Shown here in pieces: positions 4,773 to 51,733 of a DNA stretch of 64,000 nt. Every line of letters begins with the position of its first letter. The stretch's first letter is position 1. The position numbers and the translations under genes were made by a program. Under the pieces are notes generated by a model, which was given only the letters and a program-made list of their open reading frames with translations, was not told the DNA's origin and ran no database searches. The stretch is from Minisyncoccia bacterium (GTDB taxonomy: Bacteria; Patescibacteriota; Minisyncoccia; Phycocordibacterales; UBA9973), in contig JBAQFC010000011.1 of NCBI GenBank assembly GCA_049287045.1, positions 23,058 through 87,057 of the forward strand, read 5' to 3'.

Positions 4773-6533
4773 TTATAGTATATCAGTAATTCTTAATCTT
4801 AACTCTTCCCTACCGGCAAAATGAGACAAATCAAAAGTAGCCAGTAAATTTACACTAAGCCCTACAGCCAGAGGAGCTTTAAAAGAATCAATACTTGAGA
4901 AAAAGGAAATTGCTTTAATTTTATTTTTTCCATTATTACTTGCATCAGAAAAAATTATCTCTAAATGCTCACCGGAATTATTTTTACCGAATTTTTTTAA
5001 ATTTTCGATTTTTACCCCTTCAAAGAAAAATATTGGTTTAGGGTTGGCTAGACCGAACGGTGCTAACTTTTCTAAATCTCTCCAACTCCTCATATTAACA
5101 ATACTCAGACCTGCTTTTACATCGAAAGATATCTCTGTTTCTTTTTGATCACGTTTTAATTTTCCAAAGGCTAATGATAAACTTTCTTCTAGAAAATGTA
5201 TTTTTTTGTTATCGACAGTAAAACCACCTGCCATCTCATGCCCACCGAACTCCATAAAATATTCTCTTGTCTCAGTCATCAGTTCTACAACAGAGACTGA
5301 ACCTTCCGAACGACAAGACCCTTTTATGCAGTCATTCTCATCCCTACCCCATACGAAAACTGGTCTTTTATATTCATCACATATTTTACCTGCCACTAAT
5401 CCCAAAACCCCTACTCGCCATTCTGGGTTACCAATAACTATAACCTCTCTCATTTCACGCAGTTCAAATTTTTTACCAACCTCACGCATTATGTTTGCAA
5501 CGATTAATTTTCTATCGTCATTTATTTTAGAAAGATGTTTGGCGAGCATATCAGCCTCAACTAAGTCATTTGTCGCGAGTAATTCAAAAGCTCTCAGAGG
5601 GTTATCCATACGAGAAGCAGCATTCAAACGTGGGGCAATCATAAAACCAACATCATCTTCTGTAAGGTATCTCTGGTCGATACTCATTTTTGCTAAAAGT
5701 TTAACCAACCCTGGTCTAGGAGATTTTCTTAAAACTTTTATACCAAAACTCGCAATTGCGCGATTCTCACCCAAAAGTGGCACCATATCTGAAAGAGTTG
5801 CAAGACCTGCCATATCTAATAGCCATTTTTCCCAGCCAAGAGAGAGCGGGGTTAGTAATTTTGCAGACGAGGACTGTTTGAGCGTAGCGAGTTCCGCAGG
5901 CAAAAAATTACTAACCCCGCTCTCTCCTCGATAATAACTACCGTACTTTTTTAAAAAACCCTGTACAAGTTTAAAAGCCACGCCAGCACCGCATAGCATC
6001 TGCTCGGGATATTCATCCACTTTCGGATTTAAAATAGCGTATGCGTGTGGGAGGGTCGCTTGTGGGATATGATGGTCGGTGATGATTACATCAATACCAT
6101 CTACTTTTGCTTGGGCCACCTCTTCTACTGCAGTAATACCGAGATCTACGGTTATTAAAAGATTTACTCCACTTTCAGAAAATTGTTTTATAGCTGTAAG
6201 ATTCAAACCATAACCTTCAGAATTTCTTTGAGGAATATACACTTCAAAATTTGAGTAACCAATCTTTTTAAATAAGTCTTGCAAGATAACTGCCCCAGGA
6301 ATACCGTCACAATCATAATCCGCATAGATTACAATCTTTTCTCTAGCTTCCATCGCTTCAAAGATTCGTACACATGCCTTTTCCATATCACGCATCAAAA
6401 ATGGGTCATGTAAGTCACGTTCATAACTAGGATTCAAAAAAATCTCAGCCGATGCTTCATCGGTGATTCCTCTTTTTTGCAAAAGGGTTTGTATGAGTTC
6501 TGAATACTTTTCCATATAAGCAGAGTATAGCAA
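4773..6533 (-). CDS. recJ: Single-stranded-DNA-specific exonuclease RecJ (DHH/DHHA1)
   Basis: 586 aa; DHH motifs (YADYDCDGI, ITDHH) and a DHHA1-like GGHEMAGG motif. Confidence 0.85.
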   Translation of the reverse strand: MLYSAYMEKYSELIQTLLQKRGITDEASAEIFLNPSYERDLHDPFLMRDMEKACVRIFEAMEAREKIVIYADYDCDGIPGAVILQDLFKKIGYSNFEVYIPQRNSEGYGLNLTAIKQFSESGVNLLITVDLGITAVEEVAQAKVDGIDVIITDHHIPQATLPHAYAILNPKVDEYPEQMLCGAGVAFKLVQGFLKKYGSYYRGESGVSNFLPAELATLKQSSSAKLLTPLSLGWEKWLLDMAGLATLSDMVPLLGENRAIASFGIKVLRKSPRPGLVKLLAKMSIDQRYLTEDDVGFMIAPRLNAASRMDNPLRAFELLATNDLVEADMLAKHLSKINDDRKLIVANIMREVGKKFELREMREVIVIGNPEWRVGVLGLVAGKICDEYKRPVFVWGRDENDCIKGSCRSEGSVSVVELMTETREYFMEFGGHEMAGGFTVDNKKIHFLEESLSLAFGKLKRDQKETEISFDVKAGLSIVNMRSWRDLEKLAPFGLANPKPIFFFEGVKIENLKKFGKNNSGEHLEIIFSDASNNGKNKIKAISFFSSIDSFKAPLAVGLSVNLLATFDLSHFAGREELRLRITDIL

Positions 6534-28581: not shown

Positions 28582-28854
28582 ATGAATAAACAAGCATTAG
28601 TTGAATTAGTTCATGAAAAATTAGGAGGTACAAAGGTACAAGCTGAAGAAATCGTAGATGCGATGTTTGGTGCAATCGTTGGTACAATGAAAAAAGGAGG
28701 TGAAGTATCAATAGCTGGATTCGGAATCTTTTCCGTAAAAGCTCGTGCTGCTAGAATGGCTCGCAATCCAAAGACTGGAGAACAAGTCAAAGTAGCTGCT
28801 AAGAAAGTTCCAAAATTCAGAGCTGCAAAGGCTTTGAAGGACGCAGTAGAATAA
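28582..28854 (+). CDS. hup: DNA-binding protein HU
   Basis: 90 aa HU/IHF fold (GFGIFSVKARAARMARNPKTGE); followed by two tandem terminators at 28866-28950. Confidence 0.9.
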   Translation: MNKQALVELVHEKLGGTKVQAEEIVDAMFGAIVGTMKKGGEVSIAGFGIFSVKARAARMARNPKTGEQVKVAAKKVPKFRAAKALKDAVE

Positions 28855-28945: not shown

Positions 28946-29488
28946 TTATTTTTTTAGTACCTTTTTAGTGATACCAAGGAAATAGTAATAATTTCCATTC
29001 CATTTACCCTCTGAAGGGTACAAGCCTAAAGCCAATCCTCTCTTGGGATCAAGGATCAATGGTACACTTTTGAAACCATCAAACACAACTTCAGATCCCA
29101 GAGCTACAACTCCGAACCCTTCAATTAAATGAGTTTCAATTCCAAATGATTGAAGTTCTTTGATTGTTGCAGGACGTAAGCCATGACTTTGCATAGAATC
29201 TAAAACATTCTTTGATGTTATGAAACCAGGTAAAGAAACAAGGATACCAGTGAGTGAATCTTTGCCAATAGATTTTTCTTTTTTAAATAAAATATTTGAA
29301 ATTTCATTTTTATAAAAGAAATAGCCTCCAGTAGTACTTAATTGCTCAACTGTATTTTTGTAATTAACAAAAAACTTAACAGGAGTCTGGTTCGGTAGGG
29401 CTGGTACACTTTTTTGACCAGCACAACTAAAAGAAGAAATGCTGGTTACTATTAAAAGTAACTCAACAAAAAAGATTAACTTTTTCAT
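28946..29488 (-). CDS. Secreted/lipoprotein-like hypothetical protein
   Basis: 180 aa with a signal peptide and a Cys shortly after it. Confidence 0.45.
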   Translation of the reverse strand: MKKLIFFVELLLIVTSISSFSCAGQKSVPALPNQTPVKFFVNYKNTVEQLSTTGGYFFYKNEISNILFKKEKSIGKDSLTGILVSLPGFITSKNVLDSMQSHGLRPATIKELQSFGIETHLIEGFGVVALGSEVVFDGFKSVPLILDPKRGLALGLYPSEGKWNGNYYYFLGITKKVLKK

Positions 29489-29575
29489 ATGTCTGGTTTT
29501 ATTTAAGGTTAGTATTTATTACGAGGTTCTATATAACTGACCATATTGTAACACACTTTATATATAAAAGTCAAA

Positions 29576-30142
29576 CTAATATTTTCGGATTACTGCTTTT
29601 AAAACAGCAATAACATTGAGACTATTTTCTGGGTAGATAGGTTTATAATTTTTATTAGCAGGCTGAAGCCAGACCTTACTGCCCTCTTTACGGAAATATT
29701 TCATTGTAAATTCTCCATCTACTTCAGCGATAACAATCTGCATATCTTTGGCTTGATTTGCCTTCTCAACAAGAACCATATCACCTTTTTCTATGTGTGC
29801 ATCAATCATTGAATCACCATCAACTTCCAACATATAAGTAAGAGATTTGTTCTGGATCAAAAGATCGTCGAGTTTTATCTTATCAGTCAGTTCTTCTTCT
29901 ACGCTCGCTGGTAATCCAGCTGTCACATAACCAAGCATAGGAATTTCTCCAAAAGATTCTGCAGGAATTAATCTACCAAGATGATCTTTTGCAACGACAC
30001 CTGCCTCAAGAAGTTTATTCACAATTTTAAAAATAGCATTCTTTGACTTGAAACCAAAAAGGTTCATCATCTCAGAGTAAGTGGGCATTCTTTTATTTTC
30101 CAAGTAAAAGGATTCTATTTTAGTTTGATAAACATTCTGCAT
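29576..30142 (-). CDS. lexA: LexA repressor (S24 peptidase with N-terminal wHTH)
   Basis: 188 aa with the GDSM catalytic Ser motif and a downstream Lys in an S24 fold. Confidence 0.85.
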   Translation of the reverse strand: MQNVYQTKIESFYLENKRMPTYSEMMNLFGFKSKNAIFKIVNKLLEAGVVAKDHLGRLIPAESFGEIPMLGYVTAGLPASVEEELTDKIKLDDLLIQNKSLTYMLEVDGDSMIDAHIEKGDMVLVEKANQAKDMQIVIAEVDGEFTMKYFRKEGSKVWLQPANKNYKPIYPENSLNVIAVLKAVIRKY

Positions 30143-30207
30143 AAATTAAATAATTTGAATTAAAAAAATTTGGGAACTAAAGCATTTTTATAAAATGCTC
30201 GTTCGAA

Positions 30208-30402
30208 CTAGCTGAAAGCTAGTTTTAGGAAAAATTTACTCAAAAAACCTTTTTTAGAATTATAACGAACCTTCTTTAGAAGTAATTTATGGTCTCTCGC
30301 CTCTTTGATATAAACTTCACCCTGCATGATCTTCAAATCAATTTTCTTATTGATGTTTTGTATCTCTCTTTCTAGTAACTTAAGATATTGTGTTTGTGAC
30401 AT
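30208..30402 (-). CDS. Small coiled-coil protein preceded by an SOS-box promoter, immediately upstream of lexA
   Basis: 64 aa ORF; a LexA-box promoter lies at 30443-30471; same strand as lexA. Confidence 0.4.
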   Translation of the reverse strand: MSQTQYLKLLEREIQNINKKIDLKIMQGEVYIKEARDHKLLLKKVRYNSKKGFLSKFFLKLAFS

Positions 30403-30442
30403 TGATTTTTATAAGTTATTTATTGATAAGTGACCTATACAT

Positions 30443-30471
30443 AGTATAGGTGAACGCTCGTTCACTGTCAA
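30443..30471 (-). promoter_or_regulatory. Promoter TTGACA-N17-TATACT with LexA (Cheo-type) box GAACgagcGTTC in the spacer
   Basis: On the minus strand the sequence reads GTTGACAgtGAACgagcGTTCaccTATACT. The -35 box is at 30471-30466, the SOS box on plus coordinates is 30452-30463, and the -10 box is at 30448-30443. Confidence 0.65.
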
Positions 30472-30518
30472 CAAAATAGTTGTGGATAACCTAAACAACA
30501 AAAAAGACTAGGTTTTAC

Positions 30519-31430
30519 CTAGTCTTTTTTGTTGTTTTTCTCAAAATCTTCTATTTTTTTTCGTTCTTCATCCTTTTTATTCTTTCCATCAATTTTGAAG
30601 CTTAATCCCCCTGTCACACTCACGTCCCCAGTAGTCTCTTCTTGTATAGACCCTTTCACTGAAATATTTTTTGTTAATCTTCCAGTCCCTTCAACATACG
30701 CATTCATCTTTCCTACACCAGACTGTTGCATATTATAAAGTTCTTGGTCGGTTCCACTAAAATTTTTTATTGGTAATGTTACTTTAACACCTCCTTCAAT
30801 ACTTCCATATTTTTCTCCACCTTTTTTTATATCAAGCTTTATAGACGGGTTAACCTTAAAAGAACCGTAAACATTATTATTTTTATAATTTATCTCTGGT
30901 CCTGCTTCATAATTAAAGTGCACTTTTTTTGTTGGGTCTTCTTTGCTTTTTACTGATATTCCAACATGGGCCGATGGTATTGTTTTATTTCCTTCAGAGG
31001 TGATTGTAGGTGTTTCAGAGATAAAACCATCAGGCCCAACTGGCATTATAGTTTTACCTGAGTAATCATTGTAATTATCTACTCCAATGCCCCCTTCTAG
31101 TTTAAGTGCAACGTCACTTGAATCTTTCTTTGCTAAAGTATAATCAAAATTAATAGATTTACTTTCTTGTAATAAATTATTCCTAAGACCTGAAGCTCCG
31201 GGGTTTACAATAAGCTCTTGTTGATTTATCTTGTCTCCGGTTATTTTTTTCTCGTCAGAGATATTTATAGTAAAACTTTTTTCTAATTTACTATCAGGAG
31301 CAACAACTTCAATAGTGTCTTTTTCTTTAGTGTCTGCCAAATTTTGAGAAATTGCTTTATCGGGTGTGGCTGCTACTGCTGTAGTGATACCAACAGCAAG
31401 CCCGATTTTTTTAAAAAAATTTTTATCCAT
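30519..31430 (-). CDS. Secreted hypothetical protein
   Basis: 303 aa with a signal peptide; a terminator lies at 30486-30535. Confidence 0.45.
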   Translation of the reverse strand: MDKNFFKKIGLAVGITTAVAATPDKAISQNLADTKEKDTIEVVAPDSKLEKSFTINISDEKKITGDKINQQELIVNPGASGLRNNLLQESKSINFDYTLAKKDSSDVALKLEGGIGVDNYNDYSGKTIMPVGPDGFISETPTITSEGNKTIPSAHVGISVKSKEDPTKKVHFNYEAGPEINYKNNNVYGSFKVNPSIKLDIKKGGEKYGSIEGGVKVTLPIKNFSGTDQELYNMQQSGVGKMNAYVEGTGRLTKNISVKGSIQEETTGDVSVTGGLSFKIDGKNKKDEERKKIEDFEKNNKKD

Positions 31431-31458: not shown

Positions 31459-33015
31459 TCAGGAATTTACTTTTGGTCTATATTGTATAGCCTCAAGAAT
31501 GTGATTGGCGGAAATATCGTCTGAGTTTTCCAAGTCAGCTATTGTGCGAGCTATTTTTATTACACGGTGATATGCTCTTGCAGAGAGCGCTAATCTTTCT
31601 GCGCTATTATCTAAAAGATTTCTGACTTCATCCGTTAGCTTCACAATATTCGACAAATCTTTCACATTCATCTCGCTGTTTGTTTTTATATTTCGATCAA
31701 ATTTTTCAAATCTTTTTTTCTGTATTTCTCGAGCATTAGTTACTCTGTCTTTTATTTTTTCACTCTTCTCTCCCCCACCTTCTTCACCCAATTTTTTATA
31801 ATCAATATTATTTACTGAGACCCACAAATCAATACGATCCATTATTGGACCCGAAAGTTTTCTTTTATACCTATCAAGGTCTGATGGTTTACAAATACAA
31901 GCTTTTTGTTTTGATCCAGCATTACCACACGGACAAGGATTCATTGCAGCGACTAAAATAAAATTTGATGGAAATATTGCTGACCCTCGTGCACGAGAAA
32001 TCGAAACAATATTATCTTCCAATGGCTGTCGCAAGGATTCAATCACCCGTTTTTCAAATTCAGGAAACTCATCTAGAAACAAAACACCTCTATGTGCGAG
32101 TGTCACTTCTCCGGGTTTTGGATATGACCCTCCACCAATAAGTGATACATAAGACGAGGTATGATGCGGTGCACGAAAAGGTGGAGCTGAAACAAGTTCT
32201 CCATGTGTTGCTCCTGCCACAGAATGTATACCGGTAATTTCTAAAACTTCTTCTAAACCAAGGTCAGGTAAAAGTCCCGAGAAAGCTCGAGCGAGCATGG
32301 TCTTACCAGTCCCTGGTGGGCCATACATCGCAATATTATGTCCACCAGCTGCAGCTATTTCCAAACCACGTTTTGCACCTTCTTGTCCGCGAACATCTGC
32401 AAAGTCAGAACCTTTTCTTTCTTTGCTGTAATTTATTTCTGTTTTTGGTTGAACCGAAATTTTGCCCTGTCCCGCGGAGCTCTTTGAGCGAAGTGGGATT
32501 TCATCTGTGTGTTCTACTACTTCTTTTAAACTACTAGCACCAAAAATTTTAATACCATCTACAAGTGCCGCTTCGACAGCATTTTCTTTTGGTAAATATA
32601 TTTCTTCGAAACCCATTTTCTTGGCTTCCTGGGCTAGAGGCAAAGCACCTTTAATCCTCCTCAATGTTCCATCGAGTCCAAGTTCTCCCAAGAAAATCTT
32701 TTTCTCTGGATTAAATTTAATATCGCCAGCAGCGAGCATATAAGAAAGTGCAATACCAAGGTCAAAAAAAGATCCTTCTTTTTTAAGGTCTGCTGGTGAA
32801 AGAGAAACTATTATTTTTTGATTCTTTGCTTTTGGAGATTTAAAACCAGAATTTTTTATAGCTGAGCTGACACGGTCTTTTGATTCATCTACGGCTTTAT
32901 CTGGTAAACCAACAAGACTAAAAGAGTGGAGCCCTTTAGAAAGGTCCACTTCAATAGTCACGACAACCCCGGTGAGTAAATTTACTTGTGCTGAGTAAAC
33001 TTTCGCAAAACTCAT
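31459..33015 (-). CDS. YifB/ComM-family Mg-chelatase-like AAA+ ATPase
   Basis: 518 aa with a Walker A motif (GPPGTGKT) and the conserved ChlI/ComM architecture. Confidence 0.85.
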   Translation of the reverse strand: MSFAKVYSAQVNLLTGVVVTIEVDLSKGLHSFSLVGLPDKAVDESKDRVSSAIKNSGFKSPKAKNQKIIVSLSPADLKKEGSFFDLGIALSYMLAAGDIKFNPEKKIFLGELGLDGTLRRIKGALPLAQEAKKMGFEEIYLPKENAVEAALVDGIKIFGASSLKEVVEHTDEIPLRSKSSAGQGKISVQPKTEINYSKERKGSDFADVRGQEGAKRGLEIAAAGGHNIAMYGPPGTGKTMLARAFSGLLPDLGLEEVLEITGIHSVAGATHGELVSAPPFRAPHHTSSYVSLIGGGSYPKPGEVTLAHRGVLFLDEFPEFEKRVIESLRQPLEDNIVSISRARGSAIFPSNFILVAAMNPCPCGNAGSKQKACICKPSDLDRYKRKLSGPIMDRIDLWVSVNNIDYKKLGEEGGGEKSEKIKDRVTNAREIQKKRFEKFDRNIKTNSEMNVKDLSNIVKLTDEVRNLLDNSAERLALSARAYHRVIKIARTIADLENSDDISANHILEAIQYRPKVNS

Positions 33016-33027
33016 TTTTAAAAAAAA

Positions 33028-33396
33028 TTATCCGTTTAAATGTTCTTTACAAGTTCGAGCTGCTGGATTAGCTTCCATGCGAGCTGCCTCGATTTCTTTT
33101 TTACATACTTCACACTTTCCAAAAGACTCTCTACTAATTCCTTTAAGAGCACGCAATATACTATTTAGTCTTGAGCCAAGTTCTCTTAACATTGAACTCT
33201 TTTCTTCATAATCAGCAAATCTATCTGCCATATCATTCTGATCAGCTTCAGGGATGTCCTGTTCCATTGGAGTTGCCTCCCATTCGCCTGTTTCTGGGTT
33301 TAATTTACCCATATCACGGACTTCTTCTAATAGAACATCTCTCTCTTTTTCTAGGTCTTCTTTTATTTTTTTCTTGTCTAATGTCATACTGAACAT
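33028..33396 (-). CDS. DksA/TraR-family C4 zinc-finger protein
   Basis: 122 aa with a C-terminal CEVCKKEIEAARMEANPAARTCKEH motif. Confidence 0.7.
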   Translation of the reverse strand: MFSMTLDKKKIKEDLEKERDVLLEEVRDMGKLNPETGEWEATPMEQDIPEADQNDMADRFADYEEKSSMLRELGSRLNSILRALKGISRESFGKCEVCKKEIEAARMEANPAARTCKEHLNG

Positions 33397-39837: not shown

Positions 39838-40758
39838 ATGGTTTCTGAAATCGAACAGCTAAAAAGAGAATACTTGGAACACATGGAAATCGAAAAGGGT
39901 TCCAGTTTGAAGACCATAGAAAACTATGAACGATACATGACACGTTTTTTGGATTTCGCAAAAATAAAAACTGCAAAAGAAATCACTGACGAGCTAGTTC
40001 GAAACTTCCGATTATTTTTAAACCGCCAATCTGCCGGCAACAATCGCGCGACTGGAGCGACTCTCAAGAAAAAAACTCAAAATTATTATTTGATTGCTCT
40101 ACGTTCATTTTTGAAATATCTTGCAAAGAGAGACATCACTTCCCTATCAGCTGAACGCATCGATTTAGCAAAAGTTCCCGAGCGTTCTCTCGATCTCATC
40201 TCTTCACAAGATTTAGACAGACTGCTCGCTGCACCCGAAGGTAACGATTTAAAATCTCTTCGTGATCGAGCCATTTTACAATTATTGTTTTCAACTGGTC
40301 TTCGTGTTTCAGAATTATGTTCACTGACACGAGACATTGATTTTTCGACAGATGAATTTTCAATCAGAGGAAAAGGTGGCAAAGTGCGAGTTGTTTTTAT
40401 TTCAGATGAAGCGAGAAGGGATGTAAATAATTATTTAAAAAAACGAGATGATATGGATGATGCTTTGTTCGTAAAAGTTGATCTTGAAAAAGCGACGAAA
40501 GAAAAGGAAGCTCTTGCTCGTAGATCAATAGAAAGAATTGTAAAATATTATGCGATCAAAGCAGGTATTTCTAAAAAAGTTACTCCCCATATCATACGCC
40601 ACTGTTTCGCGACTGATCTCCTGCAAAATGGCGCAGACATCCGCAGTGTACAAATAATGCTAGGACATTCAAGTATTTCCACCACACAGATCTACACACA
40701 TATAACCGATAAACAACTAAGAGAGGTTCATAAAAAATTTCATTCTAAAAGAGAATAA
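39838..40758 (+). CDS. xerC: Tyrosine recombinase XerC/XerD
   Basis: 306 aa with the C-terminal catalytic motifs (HIIRHCFATDLL…LGHSSISTTQIYTH). Confidence 0.85.
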   Translation: MVSEIEQLKREYLEHMEIEKGSSLKTIENYERYMTRFLDFAKIKTAKEITDELVRNFRLFLNRQSAGNNRATGATLKKKTQNYYLIALRSFLKYLAKRDITSLSAERIDLAKVPERSLDLISSQDLDRLLAAPEGNDLKSLRDRAILQLLFSTGLRVSELCSLTRDIDFSTDEFSIRGKGGKVRVVFISDEARRDVNNYLKKRDDMDDALFVKVDLEKATKEKEALARRSIERIVKYYAIKAGISKKVTPHIIRHCFATDLLQNGADIRSVQIMLGHSSISTTQIYTHITDKQLREVHKKFHSKRE

Positions 40759-41973: not shown

Positions 41974-42903
41974 TCAATCTAAGACCTTATTACCAATTTC
42001 ATCCTGTCCGAGATATTCCTTTAAAAATTTACTGCGACTACTCTGTTTTAATCTTCTAATGGCTTTCTCTTTTATTTGAGAAACTCGTTCTCGTGTTAAA
42101 TTAAATTTTTCTGCTATTTCCTCAAAAGACAAACGAGGAGAGCCAATGCCAAAATAAAATTTAATAACATCTTTTTCACGTTCAGCAATAGTATTCAATG
42201 CTCTTTCTATTTCAATACCAAGAGATTCTTTATGAAGAATCTCGAAAGGAGAAAATTCATCAGTACCAAATAAATCAGTTGCTTCAAATTCAACAGATTC
42301 AAACGTGTCTAAATTTAAAAAAACTTTATATGGCTCATTAGTGGAAACAATCCTTTTAGGAACTCCTAAAATCAAGTTTAATTCATGCTCACACATTTCT
42401 AATTCTTTGGAGATATACTCATTTTCTGGGTAATAACCATTCTCTACAAAAAATATGTTACTTATTTTCTCAGCCTTTGATCTTGTTGAAGCTATGTTCT
42501 GTGGCAACCGAAAGAATTTATCAAATTTAATTGATGCATCTAACATGCTTGCTTGGATACCCCATACAGCATAGGACAAAAATTTTGCTCCTCTGGTGTC
42601 ATCATATCTGAAAGCAGCTTTAATTAAACCAATACAACCCTCATTAATCAAATCATCTAAGTTCAATAAGCATTTATTAGCTTGATATTTTTTCGCAACA
42701 GAGATAATAAAAAAAATATGAAGTTTTAAAAGATTTTTAAGAGATTTTTCATCTCCCTTTTTAACTTTTTTAATTAATTCTATTTCCTCATCGCAACTAA
42801 TTGGTTTATGACTATCAATTTCTTTCAAAAGATTTTTAAAAGAAATTGTTCGACTAGAAATATATTTAATTCCTTTGTCTGTTTTGAATTTAAAAGATCC
42901 CAT
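41974..42903 (-). CDS. RNA polymerase sigma factor, sigma-70 family (regions 2-4)
   Basis: 309 aa: region 2 (DLINEGCIGLIKAAFRYDDTRGAKFLSYAVWGIQ) and a region 4.2 HTH (LSFEEIAEKFNLTRERVSQIKEKAIRRL). Confidence 0.8.
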   Translation of the reverse strand: MGSFKFKTDKGIKYISSRTISFKNLLKEIDSHKPISCDEEIELIKKVKKGDEKSLKNLLKLHIFFIISVAKKYQANKCLLNLDDLINEGCIGLIKAAFRYDDTRGAKFLSYAVWGIQASMLDASIKFDKFFRLPQNIASTRSKAEKISNIFFVENGYYPENEYISKELEMCEHELNLILGVPKRIVSTNEPYKVFLNLDTFESVEFEATDLFGTDEFSPFEILHKESLGIEIERALNTIAEREKDVIKFYFGIGSPRLSFEEIAEKFNLTRERVSQIKEKAIRRLKQSSRSKFLKEYLGQDEIGNKVLD

Positions 42904-51552: not shown

Positions 51553-51733
51553 CACTAAAATGCCAAAAGTTACATCCCCTTTTAATTAAAGATATTATAC
51601 TAAAAACTGTGGATAACTATGTGTGTAATGTTTATAAGAGACATATATTGGACAAAAGTCAAAGGTGCTTTTTATTAAAAATAGCTATATAAATATGGAT
51701 ATTATATTAAAGGACACAAAATATACTAAAATA

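Follow-up and report, generated by a model that had tools for sequence, protein, structure and literature searches.

An apparently autoregulated lexA operon with a conserved leading small gene and an upstream DnaA-box consensus in Patescibacteria

Why would a small, unannotated gene stand between the promoter of an SOS repressor and the repressor gene itself, and which signals does that promoter read? The question is raised by a locus in a 64,000-nucleotide (nt) stretch of a Minisyncoccia genome (GenBank assembly GCA_049287045.1, contig JBAQFC010000011.1, positions 23,058 to 87,057 of the forward strand; hereafter the window), where a 64-amino acid (aa) open reading frame (ORF) on the minus strand is followed by lexA and preceded by a promoter carrying a LexA-type palindrome (Table 1). 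A first-pass annotation made from the letters alone had proposed that promoter, small ORF, and lexA form an autoregulated operon whose small product could be a damage-induced effector. As read from its sequence, the locus consists of a near-consensus sigma-70 promoter with a 17-nt spacer that is filled by a 16-base pair (bp) operator and that drives the small gene together with a canonical LexA. The most probable reading is a lexA operon under autoregulation, in a member of the Patescibacteria of the Paceibacteria/Nomurabacteria type.

Comparative material came from two sources. One genome per species was scanned with an alignment of small-ORF homologues, giving 130 encoding loci of which 80 were retained, and metagenome loci were taken from a scan with the exact operator, for which all counts are among the matches listed. 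Operator and box counts refer to 88 loci, namely the window, 79 genome loci (the operator is readable in 79 of the 80, L034 being cut upstream), and eight others.

In a consensus scan, the promoter at 30471-30443 is the top site of the region, matching at 11 of 12 positions, and its hexamers and spacer lie exactly where the first-pass annotation had put them. The palindrome described there, GAAC-gagc-GTTC at 30463-30452, is likewise present as located, though its true extent is longer, reaching 16 bp and running from directly after the -35 box to 1 nt short of the -10 box. The bare GAAC-N4-GTTC motif is not significant in 64 kb, with one occurrence against 0.79 expected and at least one in 51 of 100 shuffles; its significance comes from position and conservation. 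The window holds no second match to TGAAC-N4-GTTCA with fewer than two mismatches, and an operator of the form GTGAACG-NN-CGTTCAC is found in 88/88 loci with upstream sequence. Eight loci of divergent relatives, with a G+C content (GC) of 39-50%, carry the operator, one of them with a GTAC half-site. Its register over the window and 87 related loci is fixed, the operator always ending 1 nt before the -10 box and following the -35 box after a gap of 0-1 nt, and TATACT serves as the -10 box in 82 of the 87. The leader, or 5' untranslated region, varies among relatives both in sequence and in length (~25 to >140 nt), and because these flanks vary, the operator and promoter hexamers form a clear phylogenetic footprint.

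By sequence, the operator belongs to the Gram-positive GAAC-N4-GTTC class, as does the Bacillus subtilis SOS box with its consensus 5'-GAACN4GTTC-3' (PMC4234289); the LexA-type operator class first assigned to it is borne out by this consensus, by its filling of the spacer, and by its retention in every relative. Within the 633 kb made up of the window and the 80 genome loci, no second operator with up to two mismatches occurs, and extending the search to three adds only two unrelated matches with three mismatches. The metagenome matches listed for the exact operator are lexA promoters, hairpins resembling terminators, and fortuitous matches in GC-rich contigs, with no convincing second regulon member of this clade among them. 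Two metagenome contigs of 56-61% GC (L116, 10802-10842; L172, ~1009-1050) carry two tandem GTGAAC-N4-GTTCAC operators in and just after a TTGACA promoter; the extended operator is thus also used beyond low-GC Patescibacteria.

The small ORF is, on comparative sequence evidence, a real gene under purifying selection that represents a previously unannotated family. Its close homologues number 389, range from 62 to 94 aa, and carry no label beyond 'hypothetical'; when 1.84 billion representative proteins were searched with a profile, 267 clusters (50% identity) came back, nearly all of 60-100 aa, and the family spans no fewer than 130 species-level genomes. Over the first 47 codons of 81 sequences, the median ratio of nonsynonymous to synonymous substitution rates (dN/dS) is ~0.07, and variability at codon positions 1, 2, and 3 is 0.12, 0.06, and 0.36, respectively. 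Residues M1, N18, I21, D22, and H38 are invariant family-wide, and K24, I25, G28, and Y31 nearly so. The first-pass annotation, whose extents for both ORFs hold, had allowed for a small ORF lacking conservation in relatives; it is found instead to be under purifying selection and always beside lexA.

This linkage carries much of the argument for an operon. In all 80 genome loci the small ORF is followed immediately, on the same strand, by lexA, the two reading frames overlapping by 8 nt in ~40% and standing 0-8 nt apart in many others. The '...YA' C-termini shared by many of the small proteins are explained by this overlap, since the string TAT-GCN-TAA contains the lexA ATG. Five divergent members (P0307, P0382, P0264, P0338, and P0275) each lie directly upstream of an S24/LexA gene, and in 26 metagenome loci among the matches listed the small gene adjoins lexA. 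The order is reversed in P0344 and L139, with lexA preceding the small gene, and the two are still adjacent and co-directional there. A further contig (P0295) is 560 nt long and its neighbour lies beyond its end, and it was left out of the adjacency count. No minus-strand promoter is predicted between the small ORF and lexA in the window. The proposal of an autoregulated operon of the two genes is thus well supported by conservation, co-strand adjacency, and the 8-nt overlaps.

The second gene of the operon encodes, as judged from its sequence, a real LexA, and the original call stands. The 188-aa protein passes the TIGR00498 LexA equivalog model (122 bits against a cutoff of 111, residues 10-187) and matches Peptidase_S24 (PF00717, E 1.8e-28), and its residues 17-50 align with the winged helix-turn-helix (wHTH) of Escherichia coli LexA. 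PF01726 does not reach E 0.01 on the window LexA in the Pfam search, which suggests that its wHTH domain is divergent. The Ala-Gly cleavage site and the Ser/Lys dyad are aligned with those of E. coli LexA, the matched strings being VTAG/LP and VAAG/EP, GDSM and GMSM, and TMKY and TVKR. An identical protein is annotated as LexA in a Minisyncoccia metagenome-assembled genome, and close relatives are labelled Paceibacterota or Nomurabacteria.

Upstream of the promoter stands a further element, absent from the earlier reading and newly noticed here, that matches the canonical DnaA-box consensus TTATCCACA (PMC8203912). It agrees with this consensus at 9/9 positions in 81 of the 88 loci and carries one mismatch in the other seven. 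Its distance from the operator falls into classes of 6-7 nt (4 loci), 14-17 nt (104 loci), and 25-26 nt (3 loci), steps of about one helical turn by which the helical phase is kept; one locus has an inverted box. Perfect boxes are rare, with only three in the window, and these are scattered; with no cluster in any locus, a replication origin was rejected as the reason for the box. Of 17 other perfect boxes in 700 kb, 11 are intergenic, against 17% expected (p = 1.4e-5), which suggests a small regulon of whichever protein binds TTATCCACA. Other intergenic boxes lie just upstream of promoter-like sequences, both in the window (51608-51616, following a tRNA gene) and in relatives (L042 at 7803, L049 at 7714, L061 at 7620, L015 at 7825, and L079 at 4365), and in several relatives a box has clpP on one side and a gene like argH or asnA on the other.

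The box also travels with the small gene. Among the metagenome lexA loci listed, it is present in 24 of 25 with the small ORF and in 1 of 6 without it, an association with p = 2e-4, uncorrected for phylogeny. Six loci (L168, L186, L196, L180, L104, and L122) have lexA behind the same operator without the small ORF; five of these are without TTATCCACA, several start lexA ~15-50 nt from the operator, and they probably come from other lineages.

AlphaFold2 models the small protein as a hairpin of two antiparallel helices (3-27 and 32-61; mean predicted local distance difference test score 88), and the 'coiled-coil' first assigned to it is better termed a helical hairpin. Its C-terminal 15-20 residues are poorly conserved yet consistently cationic (mean net charge +3.8) and 24% aromatic, with a mean hydrophobic moment of 0.67. 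No transmembrane segment is found, the 19-residue Kyte-Doolittle maximum being 0.09 for the window copy and 0.02 for the family median, and values above 1.6 occur in only 3 of 271 family members; one divergent member (P0373) has a true C-terminal transmembrane helix in place of the tail. Searches of Pfam, NCBIfam, and PHROGs gave no homologue above noise, and neither LysM nor any other Pfam domain was found above cutoff. Against all PDB sequences, a profile search admitting E values up to 10 yielded nothing beyond an irrelevant match to tau, and Foldseek against the PDB returned only generic or designed helical hairpins (E >0.4), none at E <=0.001. A match to KwaB (E 0.0095) fell below the cutoff and was treated as helical noise, and one to Lon_lid (PF22667; 6 of 29 members, best E 0.01), also below cutoff, is probably the same. 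Lon degrades SOS proteins such as SulA.

Taken together, these features would fit the following mechanism. RNA polymerase would be excluded by a LexA dimer sitting on the operator between the two promoter hexamers, and DNA damage would lead, through RecA-stimulated self-cleavage of LexA at Ala75-Gly76, to derepression of the promoter. Fresh LexA would then be synthesised along with the small protein, with translational coupling implied by the 8-nt overlap of many relatives, and the new LexA would re-close the promoter, leaving the small protein as a pulse. The most likely binder of TTATCCACA would be DnaA acting as a transcription factor, an identity that the consensus match makes fairly likely; the protein shares control of uvrB, recN, and dinJ with LexA in E. 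coli (PMC6015884), and in B. subtilis it activates sda, a checkpoint gene (PMC8203912). Were DnaA bound here, the operon would respond to replication status besides DNA damage, and the position of the box upstream of the -35 hexamer, with its helical phasing, points to an activator geometry.

For the small protein itself, a tentative preference goes to an effector of an SOS-induced division or replication checkpoint, following the logic of SulA, YneA, SosA, SidA, or Sda, a role to which somewhat less than even confidence attaches. Induced by damage or replication stress, it would act at the membrane via its cationic, aromatic C-terminal tail and delay division or initiation. Control by a LexA operator and adjacency to lexA is the synteny rule behind YneA, SosA, ChiZ, and DivS (PMC6851548), the tail combines its charge and aromaticity with a moderate hydrophobic moment and is replaced by a membrane anchor in P0373, and autoregulation would yield pulse-like expression. 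The pairing of a DnaA box with a LexA box resembles the logic of replication-stress checkpoint genes such as the DnaA-regulated sda (PMC8203912). That the SOS repressor is made only along with an obligate hairpin partner, from a promoter integrating DnaA and LexA, so that the partner would be a new co-regulator or a class of effector that does not span the membrane, is put forward as a conjecture and is, if anything, improbable.

Several points weigh against this account, at each of its levels. LexA binding, the transcription start, co-transcription in the window strain, and inducibility by DNA damage are all predicted from sequence, and the two genes of the window are separated by 65 nt, two hairpins (z = -3.1) lying between them. 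The 64-kb window offers no further operator, recJ being without one, and any regulon beyond the operon is putative. The DnaA identity of the box rests on a match to a consensus that may not be the lineage's own, and there is neither an oriC-like box cluster in any locus examined nor a dnaA gene in the window. For a checkpoint effector at the membrane, the protein is without a transmembrane segment or a LysM domain and has zero similarity to known inhibitors in Pfam, NCBIfam, PDB sequences, or Foldseek; its tail is poorly conserved, is only modestly amphipathic (mean z ~1 against shuffles), and has been altered and replaced in the window copy. A 1:1 coupling of an inhibitor to its repressor would also be unusual.

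In a second possible role, the small protein would be a partner of LexA made in fixed proportion to it. It might serve as co-repressor or anti-repressor, or it might modulate the RecA-dependent cleavage of LexA. Such a partner would account for the strict linkage (80/80 genome loci, the five divergent members, and the 26 metagenome loci among those listed), for adjacency that persists where the order is flipped, and for overlaps that suggest translational coupling and matched stoichiometry; the polar, invariant patch formed by N18, D22, Y31, and H38 around the hairpin turn likewise suggests contact with a specific protein. Linkage by itself cannot decide the matter, however, since effectors co-transcribed with lexA have precedent, as in lexA-sulA of Pseudomonas and lexA-dinF of E. 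coli, and a soluble partner has no obvious need for a conserved cationic, aromatic tail. The known lexA-adjacent division inhibitors are divergent and membrane-spanning (PMC6851548), and that the small protein is neither speaks for the partner role. On balance a LexA partner is rather unlikely, and the checkpoint effector is retained as the preferred role.

The box admits an alternative of its own, in which TTATCCACA is the site of another transcription factor or a lineage-specific promoter element and DnaA plays no part. Each promoter has a single box, whereas DnaA regulation often uses several; the consensus may not be that of Patescibacteria, none of the loci examined has an oriC-like cluster, and the co-occurrence with the small ORF could mean a clade-specific circuit. 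A 9/9 match to a near-universal DnaA-box consensus in 81 of 88 loci (PMC8203912) argues the other way, and a general promoter element would hardly be so rare (3 perfect in 64 kb) or missing from the neighbouring promoter at 29545-29574. The intergenic enrichment of the remaining sites is as expected of a transcription-factor regulon. A binder other than DnaA is accordingly a minority possibility, with DnaA kept as the likelier one. The reading of palindrome and promoter as a chance resemblance beside a spurious ORF, for which the expectation of 0.79 GAAC-N4-GTTC per window and the missing database annotation of the ORF might speak, has a negligible probability and is refuted by the comparative data, namely the operator in fixed register in 88/88 loci, the dN/dS of 0.07, and 267 clusters all beside lexA where context is readable.

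The junction between the two genes of the window is peculiar to its lineage. Alignment with L001, whose LexA is 97% identical to that of the window, and with L005 and L016 shows an insertion of ~45-50 nt in the window lineage only, which swaps the usual small-protein tail ...PSFFKFQF for ...LKLAFS and leaves a wider junction of 65 nt. Within it lie the two 8-bp palindromes of the first-pass annotation, whose coordinates are exact, though the second contains the stop codon of the small ORF (30210-30208) and is not strictly intergenic; the hint that they belong to the system fails, as they sit in the lineage-only insertion and are absent from the closest relatives. The same absence led to their rejection as conserved regulatory sites and, with their being unflagged by a terminator scan and unique in the window, as a terminator. 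The insertion is AT-rich and folds at -23 kcal/mol (z = -3.1) without a T-run directly after it, and an assembly artefact was rejected on the identity of two independent assemblies, which agree at every base of the locus over 965 and 265 nt. The hairpins might attenuate read-through to lexA, as a local peculiarity outside the conserved system.

Two features of the leader were noted beside these. Of 85 loci, 60 have the motif RGTCR 5-13 nt past the -10 box, where shuffles give 5.5; it often reads AAGTCG or AGGTCA, and in many loci a small hairpin, TGACC-AAGTCG-GGTCA, holds it in its loop or stem. GC-rich palindromic repeats (CCCCTACCCAACCTCCCCCTA..TAGGGGGAGG..GGAGGGGGTA) are inserted in the AT-rich leader between the -10 box and the small-ORF start of several loci (L027, L028, L030, L038, L039, L051-L053, L068, L072, and L078) and look like insertions of the repetitive extragenic palindromic or miniature inverted-repeat transposable element type.

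The limits of the operon are set by two elements. On the upstream side, the hairpin at the end of the 303-aa ORF insulates the promoter of the lexA operon from read-through; it was unflagged by a simple terminator scan, having fewer than three G-C pairs in the counted stem, and weak Rfam matches in the region fall on it, with no Rfam score near the gathering threshold at 29400-30700. The 303-aa ORF itself has zero Pfam or NCBIfam matches and is a lineage-specific insertion, because the TTATCCACA box follows directly on the end of comM in most relatives. On the other side, the promoter-like site that precedes the next gene marks the 3' limit. The locus is flanked by genes for a DksA/TraR-type C4 zinc-finger-like protein (CEVCKK...CKEH; 33028-33396, minus strand) and for an HU protein (28582-28854, plus strand), and the window further encodes recJ (4773-6533), a XerC/D-like recombinase (39838-40758), and a sigma-70-family factor (41974-42903). 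None of these window genes carries the operator, and recA, uvr, and dnaA genes are absent from the 64 kb.

Table 1. Features of the lexA locus, with positions counted from the first letter of the window
Feature	Position	Strand	Remark
lexA, 188 aa	29576-30142	-	wHTH, Ala75-Gly76 cleavage site, Ser111, Lys148
Small ORF, 64 aa	30208-30402	-	unannotated Patescibacteria family; C-terminal tail altered in the window lineage
-10 hexamer TATACT	30443-30448	-	begins 1 nt past the operator
LexA operator GTGAACG-AG-CGTTCAC	30450-30465		7-bp inverted arms, 2-bp centre; fills the promoter spacer
-35 hexamer TTGACA	30466-30471	-	from sequence and promoter scan
TTATCCACA, perfect DnaA-box consensus	30481-30489	-	ends 9 nt upstream of the -35 hexamer
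GGTCA (instance of RGTCR)	30431-30435	-	about the expected transcription start
Two AT-rich hairpins (30206-30224 and 30181-30199)	30181-30224	-	inside the insertion at the small-ORF/lexA junction
Intrinsic-terminator-like hairpin AAAAAAGACTAGG-taaaa-CCTAGTCTTTTTT	30500-30530	-	end of the upstream 303-aa ORF; read from sequence
303-aa ORF	30519-31430	-	between comM and the lexA-operon promoter
comM	31459-33015		upstream side of the locus
Promoter-like site TTGACT-18-TACAAT with TG extension	29545-29574	-	for the next gene, 28946-29488; from promoter scan

The core of this arrangement, LexA with its operator and autoregulation, is already known and belongs to the textbook. What is new is an unannotated family of small proteins locked to lexA, often by overlapping frames, across deep divergence, together with a DnaA-box consensus held in helical phase with the promoter of the lexA operon. 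Patescibacteria have tiny genomes and few regulators, and a two-input promoter and an extra SOS gene in such genomes imply a function that cannot be lost. Should the small protein modulate LexA or halt division or initiation, the SOS response would gain a new component, and if the account holds as a whole, the operon would be a combined replication and damage checkpoint of a kind undescribed in model bacteria. The host organisms are largely uncultured, and the role of the small protein is testable by simple heterologous experiments.

An SOS network was reportedly described for Patescibacteria by Sanchez-Osuna, Barbe and Erill in Environ Microbiol in 2017 (cited in PMC8565304 and PMC7739468). 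A described counterpart of a lexA-coupled small gene with a phased DnaA box on the repressor's promoter was not found, in a search outside of which that 2017 paper fell. The closest established parallel is LexA autoregulation through the Cheo-type SOS box GAAC-N4-GTTC, known from Bacillus, Clostridium, and Actinobacteria. The repressor family, the GAAC and GTTC half-sites with a 4-bp centre, the overlap of the operator with the promoter of lexA itself, and the logic of derepression are all alike. The window differs in that the arms are extended to GTGAACG/CGTTCAC, the operator keeps an exact -35/-10 register throughout the whole clade, and lexA comes second in its operon, behind a conserved small gene.

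UmuDAb-DdrR of Acinetobacter and LexA-gp7 of phage GIL01 are examples of small proteins that modulate a repressor of the S24 family. As in these pairs, the small protein of the window is genetically tied to a self-cleaving S24 repressor; ddrR, however, is divergently transcribed and gp7 is phage-encoded, and the likeness is one of logic.

The YneA/SosA/ChiZ/DivS class comprises Gram-positive SOS division inhibitors with a single transmembrane helix, with or without LysM, encoded divergently from lexA (PMC6851548). The small gene resembles them in being poorly conserved, in its LexA box and linkage to lexA, and in the pulse expected upon damage. Its product, in contrast, looks soluble and is a helical hairpin whose short tail is cationic and aromatic, and the gene is co-directional with lexA, often overlapping it, and without detectable homology to the class. 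The analogy with YneA and SulA drawn in the first-pass annotation therefore stands for a LexA-controlled gene beside lexA and falls for the transmembrane or LysM character, the divergent transcription, and any similarity of sequence or fold.

A structure of Sda is present in the PDB, and neither the profile search of PDB sequences nor Foldseek found homology of the small protein to it. The likeness to sda (PMC8203912) is that of a small helical protein under putative control by replication status. With E. coli uvrB, recN, and dinJ (PMC6015884) the locus shares the combination of a DnaA-box consensus and a LexA operator in one promoter region, though here the target is the lexA operon itself and DnaA binding is putative. 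The E. coli boxes overlap the promoter and repress (PMC6015884), whereas the window has a single phased box upstream of the -35 hexamer, in a geometry suited to activation.

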